Source of the DNA: a virus
Lineage: Duplodnaviria > Heunggongvirae > Uroviricota > Caudoviricetes
Length of the DNA: 44,368 nucleotides
Virus record (IMG/VR): IMGVR_UViG_2541047889_000001
Reading direction: 5' to 3' (one strand)
How positions within the stretch are numbered: the first letter of the stretch is position 1; every line of letters begins with the position of its first letter. Positions 1-8,253 of this stretch are shown here, one piece after another. The notes under the pieces were generated by a model. It was given only the letters and a program-made list of their open reading frames with translations. It made no database searches and was not told the origin of the DNA. Both the position numbers and the translations under genes were made by a program.

Positions 1-91
1 CACAACATCCGAGGACAGCAACACCCGATACTTTTTCCTGGCTTCCAGCAACGGGGTTTCTTCCTCCGTTGCATATACAGCTCACCTTTTT

Positions 92-385
92 TCACCCACG
101 ATTAACCAACAGCCAGACCAGCAGACACGCCACCACCGGCACAGCAAAATCCATCAGGCTTGCCACATCCCAAGCTCGCGGATCAAAACCGCCCCACCAC
201 GGCATATTCATTCGCTTGCCATGCCCGAACATTTCAATCCAGCGATATTCTGCCTGGGTATGTTCACGCGCAATGAAGAACGTACAACCGGCTATCGCTC
301 CGTAAGCCCAGTTTCCGGTAAAAAGACCAACCAGTATCTGCGCAGCCACAGCACAAAGTGCATGAAGTAAGGGGCTTATATCCAT
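92..385 (-). CDS. Hypothetical small membrane protein (about 3 hydrophobic segments)
   Basis: 97-aa ORF with ATG at 385 preceded by a strong AGGAGG Shine-Dalgarno. Hydrophobic stretches AVAAQILVGLF and AVPVVACLLVWLL. No family recognised. Confidence 0.45.
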   Translation of the reverse strand: MDISPLLHALCAVAAQILVGLFTGNWAYGAIAGCTFFIAREHTQAEYRWIEMFGHGKRMNMPWWGGFDPRAWDVASLMDFAVPVVACLLVWLLVNRG

Positions 386-397
386 TATTTCCTCCTT

Positions 398-676
398 TCA
401 GCTCCATTCCCGAAGCGGTGTTTCCAGCTCCACGACATAATCAGAGAATACAGAAACATCAAACAAGTCATCAAGAATGCGAATGTTGACAAAATAACCA
501 TCATTCCGGATACAGACAGGTTCTCCCTCTTCTGTTACCCCTGTTTCTGTGTAGGTGAAACCAATTTCATCAACTAACAGTTTATTCTGGAGGTCTTCAT
601 CTTCCGCCCAGCCAAGAGATGACAGGAAGGCCTTAAACTGCAGTTTGTCATGAAACTTCAAAGTTAAATCTTTCAT
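398..676 (-). CDS. Hypothetical acidic protein, translationally coupled to stf (possible fibre accessory or chaperone)
   Basis: 92-aa ORF whose ATG (676..674) overlaps the stf stop TGA (675..673) as ATGA. It occupies the position where lambda has tfa but does not resemble lambda Tfa. Confidence 0.45.
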   Translation of the reverse strand: MKDLTLKFHDKLQFKAFLSSLGWAEDEDLQNKLLVDEIGFTYTETGVTEEGEPVCIRNDGYFVNIRILDDLFDVSVFSDYVVELETPLREWS

Positions 677-2733
677 ACGACCTCTTTTAATTGCCTGTCA
701 TTTAATTCTTTATGCCATATGCGGAAATTGCGAATATGGCCAAACAGATGTCGTTCTCCAGTATTCGTCTGCCCTCCAAATCGGATATTTTTATCAGCGG
801 TCACGCCATTATATTCACAATAAACTTCATTAACCGCTTTACCATTTGTCACCACATGAAAGTGACCATCAGCTTTTGCAATACATCCAAATGTGGTTTT
901 CTCTGCAAATACATCTGTCGCTGCGCTATTAACATACGAGCCTGAAGGGTTTGACAGACTCATATATAACTTACCACTACCTCTGTTGATTGCTGCAATT
1001 GCTGATTGCCCGGTATTGGCTGCTGCTATATCCCACACGCGGGGTGCGGCGTTTGGTGCAATATCCCAGTTTTTATGAATCTCAAGTAAAAAAGTAAATG
1101 GTAACTTATAAAGATTATTTCTGGTGGGGATACTAACCAAATCACTGGCTCTTGTCGTTGCGCTGCCTCCTGAAATAATAAATGATGATACACACGGCCC
1201 ATTCTCTACTTGTGGGGTGGCAAGATAAATATAGTCACCAGATACTGTTGCCCCACCCTGCCCAGGAGAATACTGTATCTGAGAGCCTATTTTTAACTCA
1301 CCATCAATTGCCTGAATCGTTGCCTCTGCAAAAATCCAGCCCGTGGTCTTATCCTTCCTGACTCGTGCCGTAATTCTGCCGGCAGCACCACCTGTCATAC
1401 TAATTTCAAGCGTTTGCGTATCAATGTACGCATCGCCAAGAAAAGTTGTTGCACTACCATCATACTTATCAAACCGTATACGTAACCTTACCTGTCGTTC
1501 TGTTTTAAAACGGCATGAGGTTGTCACGTACTTGTTATCGCCTGAGACATCAACTGACTTTGTTGCAGCAATTGATGCCATATTAATAGCCGAAGTTTGC
1601 CCAACCAGAGAATCGTTGCAGACAAACTTTCCATAAGTAAAACCAAAACTATCCGTCCCGGTTTCGGGCACATCCATGTTTGATGACTTCCCCCAGCTGG
1701 CTGGACTTTCCGAATTGAGCATGTAGTTCGTTCTTTGTCCCTCAATAAGCAGGCCATCACACTCAAATCGCGGCTCATTAATTTCCGCCGTTTTCAGTTC
1801 GCCAGATTTGTTGATATATGTTGCCGTTGATGCGCGACTGAAATTAACCTGTTTATCACTGGCGACCTGAACCACATCGTCACCAATAGCTATTTTTTTA
1901 TAGCCCGGAGAAAAACCCGCAATCATATCCAGTGAATCGTTAAACGGTATCCACACATCAGGCAGCGGCGGCACTATATTCGCACAGGGCTCTGCAGTCA
2001 CTTCCGCTGCGGCTTCTGCGCGGTCTGCCGCCTTTTCAGCTCGTGTCGCTGCCGACAGAGCCTCATCCTTTTTCTGCCCGGCCTTTGTTGCGTCTGCTGC
2101 GGCCTCCCGCGCTTTTGTGGTGGCGACTCCGGCATTTTCAGCGGCTGACTCTGCATTACGGCGGGAAGCCTCTTCACTGTCTGCGGAGGCTTCTTCTGAC
2201 GCACGGGCATTTGTCTCTGAACGTTCTGCCGCTGTTGCTGCGTTTTGTGCGGCTGTTTTTGAAGAAGCTGCCGCTTTCGCGCTGTTACCTGCATTCGTCT
2301 CTGATGTTTTCGCCGCGTTCCTGGACGATGCCGCTGCTGTTTCTGATTTCTTTGCTGCCGCTGCGCTCTGAGAGGCGGCTTCAGCGTTGCGTGCCGCCTC
2401 TTCCACCATCTTTTCAAAACGATACAGTGCCTCCGGACAAACATCATCTTCTGTTGCAGCGCCCAGAAAATCATTCAATGTCCCCGGCTTAGAATCCTCA
2501 TACACGGTGATGGTCCCGGCATGTGAAGGCGGAAAACCTTCAACCAGCAGGGCGACGCTGTACTGGCCATACTCAACATCCATGCTGTAACGTCCGGCTT
2601 CATCCGGATTTTCTGAGGCCACCGTGTTCACCACAACTGTGGTGCTGTTACGTTTTGCTTTCAGCTGGATTGTGCAGTTCTGTACCGGTTTTCCTGTGCC
2701 GTCTTTCAGTACACCTGAAATCTTTACTGCCAT
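673..2733 (-). CDS. stf: Side tail fibre protein: lambda Stf-like N-terminus, Ala-rich shaft, divergent C-terminal domain
   Basis: N-terminus MAVKISGVLKDGTGKPVQNCTIQLKA...YSMDVEYGQYSV matches lambda Stf from memory. Start placed at ATG 2733 (the ORF track begins two codons upstream at a GTG). Confidence 0.8.
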   Translation of the reverse strand: MAVKISGVLKDGTGKPVQNCTIQLKAKRNSTTVVVNTVASENPDEAGRYSMDVEYGQYSVALLVEGFPPSHAGTITVYEDSKPGTLNDFLGAATEDDVCPEALYRFEKMVEEAARNAEAASQSAAAAKKSETAAASSRNAAKTSETNAGNSAKAAASSKTAAQNAATAAERSETNARASEEASADSEEASRRNAESAAENAGVATTKAREAAADATKAGQKKDEALSAATRAEKAADRAEAAAEVTAEPCANIVPPLPDVWIPFNDSLDMIAGFSPGYKKIAIGDDVVQVASDKQVNFSRASTATYINKSGELKTAEINEPRFECDGLLIEGQRTNYMLNSESPASWGKSSNMDVPETGTDSFGFTYGKFVCNDSLVGQTSAINMASIAATKSVDVSGDNKYVTTSCRFKTERQVRLRIRFDKYDGSATTFLGDAYIDTQTLEISMTGGAAGRITARVRKDKTTGWIFAEATIQAIDGELKIGSQIQYSPGQGGATVSGDYIYLATPQVENGPCVSSFIISGGSATTRASDLVSIPTRNNLYKLPFTFLLEIHKNWDIAPNAAPRVWDIAAANTGQSAIAAINRGSGKLYMSLSNPSGSYVNSAATDVFAEKTTFGCIAKADGHFHVVTNGKAVNEVYCEYNGVTADKNIRFGGQTNTGERHLFGHIRNFRIWHKELNDRQLKEVV

Positions 2734-2744
2734 ATTCACCCCAC

Positions 2745-2770
2745 AAAAAAGCCCGCCTGAACCGGCGGGC
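2745..2770 (-). terminator. Rho-independent terminator downstream of lom
   Basis: Plus strand aaaaaa-gcccgcc-tgaacc-ggcgggc; on the minus strand this is a GC stem followed by a T6 tract, lying between the lom stop and the stf start. Confidence 0.6.
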
Positions 2771-2797
2771 TGTCATAACACTGTGTTACCTGGCTAA

Positions 2798-3397
2798 TCA
2801 GAACTTATAACCGACACCCACGATGAAACCGTCAGTGCGCCAGTCGCCACTGCCGGAGCCTTCATAAGCAATATCAATGGCCACGGATTCGGTCGGGTTA
2901 AACTGCACGCCAGCTCCCCACGCCAGAGACGTGTTGCTGTGGCGACCGTCATCACTTCCGGTCAGCACGTCGTGCGTTTTCCCCTTGTTGTCAGTTACGC
3001 GGAGATAATCCCCGGAGAAAGTCGACACACGGCTGTAAGCCATACCCGCCATCGCATACGCGCTGAACCATTCATTCACGCGCACAGACGGCCCCACCAT
3101 CACGCTGAACCAGCGGTTACGCACGGAATCTTCATGCCAGCGGGTATCGCTGTAACGGGTAAGCTGGCGATTCTTGTCTCCTGCATAGCTGAATGACGTC
3201 ACCAGCCCCAGTGTGTCCGTAAACTCATAACGGTATTTCACGTTAATCCCGTTAAGATCATCGCTGCCGGGAACGTTCGTCGAGGCATGAAGATACCCCG
3301 CGCTCAGCGTGGACTGATGTTCAGATGCCCATGCAGGCGCACCGGATACGGCCAGACAAATGGCTGCGGACAAAATGGCGGCATAAAGTTTACGCAT
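2798..3397 (-). CDS. lom: Lom outer-membrane protein (Ail/Lom family)
   Basis: 199 aa, [39 protein letters not shown]...GVGYKF; near-identical to lambda Lom from memory, with signal peptide and C-terminal Phe typical of beta-barrel proteins. Confidence 0.93.
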
Positions 3398-3421: not shown

Positions 3422-3445
3422 AAAAAAGGCACCATTTCTGGTGCC
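3422..3445 (-). terminator. Rho-independent terminator after J
   Basis: Plus strand aaaaaa-ggcacc-atttct-ggtgcc; on the minus strand a hairpin followed by a T6 tract, between the J stop (3467) and the lom start (3397). Confidence 0.6.
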
Positions 3446-3466
3446 CTTATATGGGTTATAACAATT

Positions 3467-6400
3467 TCAACGAATACTGATGCCGGAAGCGGCTTTTTTG
3501 GTCACAATCACCGTACAGTCGGTGATATTACCTGCCCACTGATTGCCTTTATGGAAAACCTTAAACTCCAGAGTGACGCTTCCCCTGCCACTCGGCATAT
3601 CAATAACCGCACTGTAGCTACCGGGAATGGCCCCTTTAGTTTCTCTGGATGCGATTAATACACCGTTTTTGCGAACTTCAAAACCATAACCCGTGTATCT
3701 TGTACCTCCCGGGTTATTACCACTTCCCGGATCGCTATACGCTATTCCGTTAAAGATAATGGGCGGAATAATGATTTGACGGTCAAAGTTATGATCATCG
3801 CTGATGGTGACTGTAACCGTCCCGTTTGGTGTTTCCGTGTTACCCCACGTACCAGCCTGTTTCGGAAATGATTTGGATACAGCTTTAACGAAGTCACCTC
3901 TGACCTGAGTCGCCTCCAGCATGCCCTTAATCGTACAGTTTTCATTTACCGTGACATTGTTGAGCGTCCCGGCGTTCGCATTCACACTGCCACTGATATC
4001 CGCATTTTTAGCGGTCAGCTTTCCGTCTGATGTCAGGGAAAATACCGGAGGACTGCCACCACTGGTAATGGTGGGGGCCGTCAGGCGCTTCAGGAACACG
4101 TCGTTCATGAATATCTGATTGCCCTGCGCCACAAACATCGGCGTTTCATTCCCGTTTGCCGGGTCAATAAATGCGATACGGTTAGCGGCAACCAGAAACT
4201 GACTCAGTTTGCCTTCCTCCGTGTCCTCCATGCTGAGGCCAATACCCGCGACATAATGTTTGCCGTCTTTGGTCTGCTCAATTTTGACGCCCCACATGGC
4301 ATTCCACTTATCGTTGGCGTCCTTCCACTCTTTCGAAAACTCCTCCAGTCTGCTGGCGTTATCCTCCGTCAGCTCGACTTTTTCCAGCAGCTCCTTGCCG
4401 AGATGGGATTCGGTTATCTTGCCTTTGAAAAAATCCAGGTAACCTTCCGCATCATCGCTCGCCCGACCGACGGCCTCCACGAATGCCGATTTGCCAACGG
4501 TGTTCACACTGCGGATATAAAAGTAATAATCATGGCCCGGTTTGATATTGATACTGGCGGCTATCCAGTACAGCGCCGTACCAAGATAGCGGGCTGTGGT
4601 TTCAACCTGCCTGATATCGGTAATCCGCTTTTCCGAGAACCAGAACTCAAACTGTACCGTCGGGTCATAAACGGCAAGATGCGGCGTGGCGGTTATCTGA
4701 AAATAGCCCGGCGTCAGCTCAATCCTCGACGGTGCTGCCGGTGCGGCAATCCGGAACGATACCGACGCCGGATCGCCCTGCTGCCCCCACGCATTTACCG
4801 CCCGGACTGTCAGCCTGTAGTTCCCCAGCGCCAGTTGCCTGAAGCGGTATGTGGTTTCCGTCGTCCGGGCCGTGCTGACCAGCCGCTCACTGCCGTCATC
4901 CGCTGTTACGGTCAGACGGAGCAGGAAGCTCACGCCCTTCACCACCTTCGGCGTGTCCCAGCGCGCCAGCACCTGATATTCCCCGCTGTCTGCGGTGACT
5001 TCGGCGGTCAGGTGCTGCACCGCTGGCGGCGTGACACCATTCACCGTGCCGCTCTGGTCGCCGTCAAAGTACGCCCCGTTATCCACGATGGCCTCTTTTT
5101 CCGGTACATGCTGCACGGCGGTGATGGCATACGTGCCGTCGTCGTTCTCACGGATACTCACGCAGCGGAACAGGCGCTGGCGCAGCGTCGGCAGCTTCAG
5201 CCCCCACACGCTGTATTCAGCAACACCGTCAGGAACACGGCTCACTTTCACCTTCACGCCGTCGGTGACGGACTGAACCTCCACGCTGATCGGATTGCCA
5301 CTTCCGTCAACCAGGCTTATCAGCGTGGTACCGGAGGATGGCAGCGTGATTTCACGGTCGAGCGTCAGCGTCCGGGTCTGGCTGTTTACCGCCAGCACGC
5401 GCCCGCCGATGCTGATACCGGCATAGTCATCATCACAGATTTCAATGACATCGCCCGGTACATGGCGAAGCCCTTCTGCGCCCACGCAGAAGTCCACGGT
5501 CTGCGTTTCCAGCAGTTCTGTTTTAATCAGCCACAGCCCGGCGCGGTGTGCCTGCCCCCGGCTGGTACAGCCAAAAGCATCCATCTTCGTGACGTTACGA
5601 CCGTAACGGGCAATGGCCTGCGTATCCTCCACAAGCTCTGTCGCCGTCTCCCAGCCGTTGTTCGGGTCAATCCAGTTCACCTCAACGGCATTATGGCGGT
5701 CTTTCAGGGCGCTGAAACTGTAGCGGAACGGCGCGCCATCATCCGGCATCACCACATTACTGCGGTTATAGGTCCACACCTTATCCGACGGTCGGTCCTG
5801 CACGAACGTCAGCGTCTGCCCGTTCCATACCGGCATACAGCGCATCGCCGAGCAGAAATCACTGAGCACATCCCACGCCTTGCGCTGTGTGGTCAGGTAC
5901 GCATTACAGGTGATGCGCGGCTCCGTGCCGCCAAAGCCGTCCGGCACTGACTGGTCGCAGTACTGGCCGATGACATACAGCGCCCATTTGTCCACATCCG
6001 CCGCACCAAGACGTTTCCCCATGCCGTAGCGTGGATGGGTCAGCATATCCCACAGACACCAGGCCATGTTATTGCTGTATGCTGGCTTAAACGTTCCGTC
6101 CCAGATACCGCTGTATTGCCGCGTCTGCGGGTTATAGTTCGACGGCACCTGCAGAATACGCCCGCGCAGATGATAATTACGGCTCACCTGCTGGCTGCCG
6201 AACTGCTCCGAATCCACCTGTACGCCGACCAGTGCCGTGTTCGGGTAGCACTGTTTCACATCGATGATTTCGGTGTATGACGACCAGAGCGTTTTGTTCT
6301 GCAGCTGGTCTGTGGTGCTGTCCGGCGTCATCCTGCGCATCCGGATATTGAACGGGCGCGGCGGCAGGTTACCCACCACCACCGAGGCCAGATACTGTGA

Positions 6401-6880
6401 GGTGGTTTTGCCTTTAATGGTGATGTCTTTTTCCGTCACCCAGCCACCGTTACGCTGTATCTGAACCAGCAGGCGGACTTCCGACGGATTCCGGTCCCCC
6501 TTTGAGGTGGTTTCCACCAGTGCCTGCACACCGAAGGTAAAGCGCAGACGGTCGATGTTTGCAGACGTGATGGTCCGGGTAATCGGCGTGTCGTACTTCA
6601 CTTCCGTACCCAGCACCGTCTCGGAGCCGGAGGATTCAAATCCCTCCGGCGGTGTCTGCTCCTGCTCACCTGCCCGGAAAACCACCGTGACACCGGAGAT
6701 ATTGGTATTCCCCTCACTGTCCAGCACTGGCGTACTGTTCAGCAGCACACTTTTTAATCCGTCCACCGGACCTTCAATCGGCCCTTCACTGATGGCGTCT
6801 ATCACGCTCAGCATCTGGGATGATTTCAGGTTGTCCTTCGCTTCGCGCGGGGTATGCCCCTTACTGCTGCCTTTACCCAT
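3467..6880 (-). CDS. J: Tail tip / host specificity protein J (central fibre)
   Basis: 1137 aa; N-terminus [20 protein letters not shown] and most of the length match lambda gpJ from memory. The C-terminal roughly 150 aa appear to differ from lambda. Confidence 0.93.
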
Positions 6881-6940: not shown

Positions 6941-7612
6941 TCAACGACCAATCACCACAACCTGACCACCGTCCCCCTCGTCTGCCGTGCTGATCTCCTG
7001 AGAAGCCACCCGCGACCCCACGCGCATTTCACCGTACAGAACAGGCAGAACATTGCCCTGGGCAACCATGTTATCCAGTGAGGAGAAATAGGTGTTCTGC
7101 TTACCGTTATCCGTTGTCTGTGTACGGGGAGTTCTAGCTTTCGGTGCCAGCATCTGCGCCACACCACCAAGTACCATACTGGCACCGAGAGAAAACAGGA
7201 TACCGGTCATACCACCGGCCCCAATGGCTGCCCCCCATGCTGCAAGGGTGGCTCCGGCAGTAAAGAATGATCCGGCAATGGCGGTAGCCCCCAGAACAAT
7301 CTGGAATACGCCCCCTGACTTGGCCCCGGCGACTCTGGGAACAATATGAATCACAGCGCCGTCAGGCAGAACCTCATGTAACTGCGCCGTCAATCCGGAC
7401 GTGCTGACGTCCCGCCCGGCAATCCGTACCTGATACCAGCCGTCGCTCAGTTTCTGACGAAACGCCGGGAGCTGTGTGGCCAGCGCCCGGATGGCTTCAG
7501 CCCCCGTTTTCACACGAAGGTCGATGCGGCGGCCAAATCGTTGTAAATCCCCGTAAAGGCAGATGCGCGCCATGCCCGGTGACGCCAGAGGGAGTGTGTG
7601 CGTCGCTGCCAT
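6941..7612 (-). CDS. I: Tail tip assembly protein I
   Basis: 223 aa, MAATHTLPLASPGMARICLYGDLQRFGRRIDLRVKTGAEAIRAL...; matches lambda gpI from memory. Overlaps the end of K. Confidence 0.93.
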   Translation of the reverse strand: MAATHTLPLASPGMARICLYGDLQRFGRRIDLRVKTGAEAIRALATQLPAFRQKLSDGWYQVRIAGRDVSTSGLTAQLHEVLPDGAVIHIVPRVAGAKSGGVFQIVLGATAIAGSFFTAGATLAAWGAAIGAGGMTGILFSLGASMVLGGVAQMLAPKARTPRTQTTDNGKQNTYFSSLDNMVAQGNVLPVLYGEMRVGSRVASQEISTADEGDGGQVVVIGR

Positions 7613-8253
7613 TTGTCGGTATACCTCTCTCGTTTGCTCAGTTGTTCAGGAATATGGTGCAGCAGCTCGCCATCACCACAGTAAATGGCGGCATGATTCG
7701 GCACCGATGAACCAAAACAGCACAGCAGCACATCGCCCGGTTGTGCTGATGACAACGGCACCTGATACAGCCCTGTGGCCTCCAGATTATCCAGATAGAG
7801 ATTCTGACCGTGACGCCACCAGTCATCCCCGCGATGAAAATCCGGCATCTCAATCCCCGCCAGATGATAAGCATCCCGGAACAGCGTGTAACAGTCCGTC
7901 ACCCCGTGCTCAAAGCGCCGCCCGGTAAGATGCGGCACACAGCGGAATTTATGAATCTCACCCCGGCAGACCAGCCACCACGGCAAATCGCTCTGCACCT
8001 GCAGCCGCCTGTCAGCCTCACTCAGCCAGGGCAGACCACCGGGGTGGCTGTGGACCAGCGCCACAATCTCACCCTGCATCTCTGCCCGCAGCCAGTCCTC
8101 CGGCGACATCCGGAAATACGCCTCCGGCTCACCGGAGATATTCACGCAGGGAAAATATCTTTCCCCCTTCGGCGTTCTCACCACGAAGCCACACGACTCC
8201 GCTGGCGCACATCGCCGGGCGTGCGCCAGAATCGCTGATTCTGTCTGTGTCAT
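7510..8253 (-). CDS. K: Tail tip assembly protein K (JAMM/MPN plus NlpC/P60-type)
   Basis: Start set at ATG 8253 (MTQTESAILAHARRCAPAESCGFVV), a few bases past the L stop. JAMM-like HSHPGG...SEADR motif visible. Matches lambda gpK from memory. Confidence 0.88.
   Translation of the reverse strand: MTQTESAILAHARRCAPAESCGFVVRTPKGERYFPCVNISGEPEAYFRMSPEDWLRAEMQGEIVALVHSHPGGLPWLSEADRRLQVQSDLPWWLVCRGEIHKFRCVPHLTGRRFEHGVTDCYTLFRDAYHLAGIEMPDFHRGDDWWRHGQNLYLDNLEATGLYQVPLSSAQPGDVLLCCFGSSVPNHAAIYCGDGELLHHIPEQLSKRERYTDKWQRRTHSLWRHRAWRASAFTGIYNDLAAASTFV

Follow-up and report, generated by a model that had tools for sequence, protein, structure and literature searches.

A lambda-type side tail fibre with a GTA-spike/LamG-type head and two linked small genes in the former place of tfa in phage Perceval

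The Stf-Tfa pair of phage lambda, together with the Tfa proteins of the Mu/P2 type, and the head spike fibre of the gene transfer agent (GTA) RcGTA (GhsB/Rcc01080) are the closest described systems for the three genes dealt with here, the side tail fibre gene stf and two small genes, orf92 and orf97. These genes are located at the start of a 44,368-nucleotide viral DNA (IMG/VR record IMGVR_UViG_2541047889_000001, Caudoviricetes), and this whole stretch is referred to below as the window. Over its first 2.8 kb, the window matches phage Perceval, which is an active prophage of Escherichia coli LF82, with 100% identity; in Perceval the three genes are PERCE_22-24 (LF82_181-183 in the host numbering, corresponding to window positions 92-2739), and the classical phage 21 carries the same cassette with 98.6% identity. 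With lambda Stf-Tfa, the Perceval genes share the Stf anchor, the Ala-rich shaft and a small, translationally coupled downstream gene, and the cassette occupies the exact former place of tfa; however, the Perceval fibre head is unrelated to lambda orf-314, and the 92-amino-acid product of orf92 has no similarity to the 194-amino-acid Tfa. With RcGTA, a homologous domain is common to both fibres. The RcGTA spike fibre is a single flexible subunit per spike on the capsid that has a short N-terminal anchor and binds capsular polysaccharide, and its AlphaFold model has been described as lectin-like. In Perceval, the corresponding head sits on a lambda side-fibre stalk and has an extra LamG-like C-terminal domain, and the gene that follows the head is orf92, whereas capsule biosynthesis genes come after the fibre gene of RcGTA.

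From the gene anatomy, homologies, synteny statistics and predicted folds, we infer that this region, with which the tail gene cluster of a Perceval/phage 21-type lambdoid phage ends, encodes a mosaic fibre, an accessory or assembly factor for the head type (orf92) and an independent envelope gene (orf97). To this explanation as a whole we give a probability of about 0.55, that is, slightly better than even. A lambda-type anchor and Ala-rich shaft would have been recombined onto a lectin-like head of ~440 amino acids, composed of an RcGTA-spike domain and a LamG-like domain, and the same recombination would have displaced lambda tfa, leaving a relic of 20 codons. The translationally coupled orf92 would encode a factor dedicated to heads of this type, equivalent to Tfa in function though not homologous to it, and this factor would act on the head, or stay bound to it, as the head is made. 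The orf97 product would act on the cell envelope whatever the specificity of the fibre, which would make orf97 a cargo or accessory gene and not a fibre chaperone. The features concerned are the following.

673..2733, minus strand: stf, side tail fibre, 686 amino acids from the ATG (open reading frame [ORF]; PF08400, E 6e-68; phrog_1419 tail protein)
2341..2733, minus strand: lambda-like N-terminal anchor of Stf, residues 3-133 in the 688-amino-acid numbering (PF08400)
1990..2439, minus strand: Ala-rich shaft, presumed coiled coil, residues ~101-250 (32-38% Ala per 50-residue block)
1105..1845, minus strand: head domain homologous to the RcGTA head spike fibre, residues 299-545 (phmmer, NF048003)
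691..1056, minus strand: C-terminal LamG/ConA-like domain, residues 562-683 (PF13385, subthreshold)
673..676, minus strand: ATGA shared by the stf stop and the orf92 start (sequence; kept in 78/78 related viral loci)
398..676, minus strand: orf92, 92-amino-acid acidic alpha/beta protein, PHROG 1361 (ORF, profile, synteny)
391..397, minus strand: Shine-Dalgarno sequence AAGGAGG for orf97, directly 3' of the orf92 stop (sequence)
92..385, minus strand: orf97, 97 amino acids, three predicted membrane helices, PHROG 1443 (ORF, profile, AlphaFold)
13..72, minus strand: relic of the 3' end of a lambda-type tfa (tblastn)

The 688-residue numbering of Stf results from an in-frame GTG at 2739. As had been stated in a preliminary description of this DNA, the N terminus of the protein is lambda-like: PF08400 (prophage tail fibre N-terminal domain) matches residues 3-133 with 227 bits against a cutoff of 26.6, the solved lambda Stf N terminus (PDB 9e7m) matches residues 3-96 (E 6e-51), and lambda orf-401 is 75% identical over residues 3-160 and 53% identical in the Ala-rich stretch that extends to ~residue 242. 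Past ~residue 250, nothing in Stf matches lambda orf-401 or orf-314, and therefore the foreign part of the protein comprises ~440 amino acids; the same description had correctly recognized a non-lambda C-terminal part but had put its size at ~300 amino acids. Residues 299-545 align with residues 44-285 of Rcc01080 (PDB 6tb9; phmmer, E 6e-10), and the NCBIfam model NF048003 (GTA_spike_fiber) scores 56.8 bits on Stf against a cutoff of 36. The match of PF13385 (Laminin_G_3) to residues 562-683 reaches 24.6 bits, which is below the cutoff of 27.6; a homologous fibre in locus L391, a P1-like element from Leclercia, has a precomputed Laminin_G_3 match, and the C-terminal motif of Stf is conserved across the fibre heads. 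Judged by these similarities, Stf is a lambda stalk joined to a ~440-amino-acid head of predicted sugar-binding type.

The exchange has left a scar. Just 3' of the orf97 stop codon, window positions 13-72 encode ATEEETPLLEARKKYRVLL, where lambda Tfa has ATKEETSLLEAWKKYRVLL. This relic of 20 codons corresponds to residues 156-175 of lambda Tfa (tblastn, 80% identity, E 2e-4), and in agreement with the earlier remark that no lambda-type Tfa follows the fibre gene, no intact lambda-type tfa is present anywhere in the window. The position of the relic indicates that the head-orf92-orf97 cassette replaced the stf-distal part and most of tfa. Among 5,426 complete E. coli genomes, 450 hold 80% or more of the cassette. 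In phage 1W (locus L003, 999-3415), three genes for a "mobile element protein" remove the last ~45 codons of stf, with orf92 and orf97 intact, and the same partial match (query positions 806-2750, 69% covered) is found in 3W, D2, 4A7 and Lambda_4C10. We read the interruption in 1W as an IS66-family insertion, and by analogy to the stf frameshift of lambda PaPa it would represent a natural fibre knockout.

The gene stf is annotated as a tail fibre in Perceval and as a side tail fibre in phage 21, and in both records it is followed by a hypothetical protein and then by a hypothetical or "putative membrane" protein. We consider both small ORFs to be real genes because they belong to PHROG families, have hundreds of homologues, give confident AlphaFold models and are represented among the transcripts of LF82. 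According to the ORF list and the sequence, stf, orf92 and orf97 all lie on the minus strand, and the strand in the preliminary description has to be corrected in this respect; its account of the gene junctions agrees with our data. The acidic orf92 product (pI 4.2; 20 D+E versus 8 K+R) starts on the ATGA at 673-676 that overlaps the stf stop, the orf92 stop codon is at 398-400, and the strong Shine-Dalgarno sequence AAGGAGG is separated by a spacer of 5 nucleotides from the ATG (383-385) of orf97, whose product has the membrane character ascribed to it, with three predicted helices.

The orf92 protein matches phrog_1361, a family without an assigned function, over residues 1-91 of 92 (E 3e-42). 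No match was found in Pfam or NCBIfam, nor in PADLOC at E values of up to 1, and the PDB sequences contained nothing meaningful. In the comparison with lambda Tfa, blastp returned nothing, and hhalign of the orf92 family profile gave a probability of 0.05%; for DUF4376 (PF14301), there was no Pfam match, and hhalign against the DUF4376 protein of locus L189 gave a probability of 0.24%. An exhaustive profile search with orf92 yielded 81 cluster representatives of ~85-110 amino acids, and the family is characterized by the motifs M[KR]D..L[KR]F, D.IG, G[YW][HF]VN.R and P.R.W. A further search yielded 568 proteins, and among the best 120 of these, all source-named ones are called hypothetical or uncharacterized, and none has a Pfam domain. 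The AlphaFold model of orf92 (mean pLDDT of 90) has the topology beta-alpha-alpha-beta4, a generic two-layer alpha/beta sandwich that corresponds to no known chaperone fold, and comparison with PDB and BFVD folds gave nothing informative. In prophages of Comamonas and Pantoea (loci L176, L180 and L187, ~7432-7999), the orf92 domain forms the N-terminal half of a protein of 171-188 amino acids.

The evidence that carries our reading of orf92 is its linkage to the fibre head. A set of 80 viral loci was retrieved by orf92 alone, of which 78 had enough upstream sequence to be evaluated, and 76 could be evaluated for orf97. In all 78 of these E. coli-type loci, a fibre with a GTA-spike/LamG head overlaps orf92 by 4 nucleotides, and loci that at first seemed to be without orf92 encode a divergent version of 89 amino acids at the same place. 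In a group of Leclercia prophages, the fibre head and an orf92 homologue with ~30% identity are present in 80/80 loci, and in each of the loci of this type that were inspected, the last base of the fibre gene is the first base of the orf92 homologue. The pairing of head and orf92 recurs in prophages of Comamonas, Pantoea and Chelativorans, with the order fibre, orf97, orf92 in the last. The P1-like Leclercia element L391 encodes two such fibres of 703 and 437 amino acids, each followed by its own orf92 paralogue. In its segment 3890-8295, P1 tail fibre genes precede both LamG-type fibre/orf92 pairs, after which come one orf97 homologue and then the LydB and DarA genes. As judged by its genes for P1 Gp16, tail fibre R, LydB and DarA, L391 is P1-like, and the use of the cassette thus extends to such an element. 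Among 85 distinct E. coli combinations, the identity of orf92 correlates with that of the head (r of ~0.45), compared with an r of 0.03 for the identity of orf97.

Synteny over such wide distances supports the earlier suggestion that orf92 is a different fibre chaperone, and neither orf92 nor orf97 matches a known Tfa family. Both genes are also kept in close relatives (orf92 in 78/78 loci and orf97 in 76/76). In light of this linkage, we propose with moderate confidence that orf92 is a head-coupled accessory or assembly factor; the same data would fit a chaperone as well as a subunit that stays bound to the head or caps it.

A number of observations weigh against this proposal. One orf92 type goes with several LamG head types, from which it follows that orf92 is not specific for the fibre tip. 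In a reverse test on 63 very diverse environmental fibre loci that have a complete head, orf92 was adjacent in 35 and nearby in 8, but it was undetectable in 20, about a third of these distant loci. Furthermore, a tagged RcGTA spike fibre made alone in E. coli binds cells, and this homologue thus works without a partner, which means that the head fold does not universally need a helper. It is conceivable, therefore, that the head folds unaided, as with the self-chaperoning C terminus that the preliminary description had named among its possibilities, and that orf92 is a second structural or adaptor subunit, such as a cap or a piece to which a further fibre protein docks, or a fibre regulator. 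In addition to the heads without orf92 and the functional RcGTA homologue, this alternative would account for the second fibre gene directly 3' of orf92 in many relatives (the 2G7b type in E. coli and a 332-amino-acid protein in the Leclercia group) and would agree with the generic fold of orf92. However, Perceval and phage 21 retain orf92 without having a second fibre, and the presence of one paralogue for each LamG-type fibre in L391 fits a partner of the head itself. We consider an adaptor or regulator possible but unlikely, and we prefer the dedicated head factor.

The second fibre gene found between orf92 and orf97 in many relatives encodes 227-345 amino acids (for instance, locus L134, 6307-6990), with gaps of 731 or 1099 nucleotides between the two small genes. 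In phage 2G7b (locus L005, 3416-4453), the fibre at this place has a Peptidase_S74 domain and no orf92 of its own, which is in keeping with our reading of orf92. The Peptidase_S74 intramolecular chaperone and DUF4376 represent alternative means of fibre maturation in the same gene position of relatives, but neither domain is present in the Perceval fibre or in orf92.

The orf97 protein matches phrog_1443, again a family without an assigned function, over residues 1-96 of 97 (E 2e-58); no match was found in Pfam or NCBIfam, nor in PADLOC at E values of up to 1, and the PDB sequences contained nothing meaningful. A word-indexed search yielded 577 homologues, and the identity to the listed copies from Comamonas, Aeromonas, Salmonella, Citrobacter and Leclercia is 57-68%. 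A scan of species-representative genomes found orf97 in alpha-, beta- and gammaproteobacteria and in Desulfovibrio. The protein is hydrophobic, and its AlphaFold model (mean pLDDT of 93) consists of three helices (residues 4-23, 26-52 and 74-96), for which a fold search returned generic bundles alone. The annotators of phage 21 assigned two transmembrane domains with both termini inside, compared with the three helices of the model. The central loop is highly conserved, nearly all positions of the stretch REHTQAEYRWI..FG.G.R.NMPWWGGFD are invariant or close to it, and across 185 members of the family, the loop contains on average 5.1 K+R and 4.3 D+E and the C-terminal tail 1.3 K+R. A function as a holin was considered and rejected, as S, the endolysin and Rz of Perceval (PERCE_60-63) are encoded more than 20 kb away from PERCE_22-24 and stand-alone homologues of orf97 occur in chromosomes. 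Holin loops are usually far less conserved than the loop of orf97.

In all 76 E. coli phage loci, orf97 is the last gene of the fibre cluster, and its product is 93-100% identical among these phages, compared with 30-100% for the heads. Outside this group, its position follows receptor-binding genes of very different kinds: in Comamonas it lies 3' of a giant J gene with a 72-amino-acid ORF, in Pantoea and Halomonas it follows DUF4376 proteins, and in Desulfovibrio it follows a pectate-lyase/S74 tailspike. In a Pigmentiphaga prophage (locus L190, 7947-10054), an orf97 homologue is flanked by fibre-like genes on one side and by a reverse transcriptase (RVT_1) on the other, an arrangement that looks like a diversity-generating retroelement cassette. 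The gene is missing from all 80 Leclercia-type loci and from 79/80 distant, diverse fibre loci. Stand-alone chromosomal copies are present in Aeromonas, between pirin and RIO1 genes in five loci (L007, L164, L166, L170 and L171), and in sphingomonads, beside ftsZ, pnp or ligA (L193, L204 and L223); of 69 orf97 genome loci, 14 contain one of four tail-gene markers, and a few more are phage borne as judged by Pfam. Thus, orf97 is separable from the fibre type and from orf92, which argues against a fibre-specific chaperone. On the other side, orf97 is in many phages tightly coupled to the fibre genes upstream of it, which could also mean that its role is related to the fibre and is a point against our reading. 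An obligate toxin-antitoxin-like pair of orf92 and orf97 was rejected, because each gene is found without the other.

Small envelope proteins that are encoded beside receptor-binding genes or that block entry include Llp of T5, Cor of phi80, N15 and HK022, and Imm of T4. The preliminary description had named fibre-linked cargo, such as a superinfection exclusion membrane protein, as one possibility. The cargo part of this suggestion fits orf97 better than a chaperone does, as the gene is independent of the fibre type and also chromosomal. That orf97 would exclude superinfecting phages or mask a receptor in the manner of Llp, Cor or Imm is an alternative that we regard as quite unlikely. It would explain why a small membrane protein is encoded directly 3' of the receptor-binding genes in many unrelated phages, and transcription in the lysogen (see below) is in line with it, but no homology to the known proteins was found, and there is no PADLOC, Pfam or NCBIfam match. 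Moreover, orf97 is far more conserved than the neighbouring fibres, and its near invariance beside widely varying heads argues against receptor-specific masking. It retains ~57-63% identity between E. coli phages and the Aeromonas and Comamonas copies and occurs as a stand-alone chromosomal gene outside prophages. Such conservation and chromosomal occurrence are unusual for exclusion proteins. An envelope function of orf97 that is independent of fibre specificity therefore appears to us the better proposal.

Upstream of the cassette, the order in the 5'-to-3' direction of the minus strand is J, hairpin, lom, hairpin, stf, orf92 and orf97, and downstream of it, in both Perceval and phage 21, the convergent sitABCD operon follows. 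The upstream features are as follows.

3467-6880, minus strand: J (gene order)
3425-3448, minus strand: terminator-like hairpin 3' of J (sequence scan)
2798-3397, minus strand: lom (gene order)
2750..2771, minus strand: intrinsic-terminator-like hairpin with a T run, between lom and stf (sequence scan)

The hairpin at 2750-2771 has an 8-bp stem with 7 GC pairs and is followed by TTTTTTGTGGG, and in phage 21 a terminator is annotated at the corresponding place, upstream of stf. With strong terminator-like hairpins 3' of lom and J, a terminator would be located directly upstream of the stf ribosome-binding site.

Transcription of the LF82 lysogen was read from the reanalysed transcriptome sequencing data for five conditions in the S4 Table of PMC9928086. 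According to this table, the head and tail genes of Perceval and lom are near silent in all five conditions (0-20 raw counts), whereas stf, orf92 and orf97 reach 31-264 counts in macrophages. Between growth in LB and 6 h in macrophages, the log2 fold changes in the table are 4.85 for stf, 3.73 for orf92 and 3.0 for orf97 (8- to 29-fold), and the fpkm values (fragments per kilobase per million) decrease in the order orf92, orf97, stf. Read-through from sitABCD was rejected as the source of this RNA, since sitA changes ~30-fold between two Dulbecco's modified Eagle medium (DMEM) time points of the table and orf92 and orf97 remain unchanged. Within the limits of this table, the data hint at a start site that is independent of the late operon and perhaps located inside stf.

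Expression of the three genes in a lysogen with silent head and tail genes is moron-like and, as such, weighs against a role in virion assembly alone. In PMC9928086, stf, orf92 and orf97 do not appear among the listed morons. One could therefore imagine that orf92 and orf97, possibly with the 3' part of stf, form a unit that is expressed from the lysogen, with a promoter in or just upstream of stf and a role in host stress. The macrophage induction of the three genes in the S4 Table, in the presence of silent head, tail and lom genes, and the fpkm order, which is that expected of an internal start, speak for such a unit, as do promoter-like sites on the minus strand at 2001-1973 and 1424-1397. 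However, the counts in the table are low, the parts of PMC9928086 considered here do not state whether the gene counts are strand specific, and promoter-like sites are no commoner than expected by chance (3 found by the scan versus 4.2 expected). In addition, orf92 and orf97 are apart in many genomes and therefore do not form an obligate pair, and orf92 is always near a fibre gene in the examined loci. We consider a moron unit of this kind improbable and retain the reading of orf92 as a head-type factor and of orf97 as an independent envelope gene.

Our literature search found no study of these genes. The sequence itself is already public, and small helper genes next to fibre genes are ordinary; what sets this locus apart is the unusually clean synteny of the unnamed family to which the putative helper orf92 belongs and the strong conservation of the unexplained family of orf97. 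A more far-reaching view, which we put forward tentatively and regard as possible at best, has two parts. In it, orf92 would stand for a widespread, unnamed class of trans-acting partners of GTA-spike plus LamG heads, present with one copy per fibre in siphophages and P1-like myophages of alpha-, beta- and gammaproteobacteria. At the same time, orf97 would be a bacterial three-helix membrane protein that has repeatedly been recruited by phages to the ends of their receptor-binding modules, that is switched on in lysogens within macrophages and that has a generic envelope function new to phage biology.

Lambda-type side fibres are engineered to retarget phages and delivery particles, and for this purpose it has to be known which small genes travel with a head. 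If orf92 is a helper of lectin-type heads, it belongs in every construct that uses such a head, a type found in about 1 of 12 complete E. coli genomes. For orf97, which is conserved and unannotated, the placement after receptor-binding genes and the transcription reported in the S4 Table of PMC9928086 for a lysogen of pathogenic E. coli within macrophages make it a defined and cheap target for knockout and expression in trans. If our explanation is true, the few families of fibre assembly proteins would be joined by a new one, and two blank PHROG families, 1361 and 1443, would receive names.

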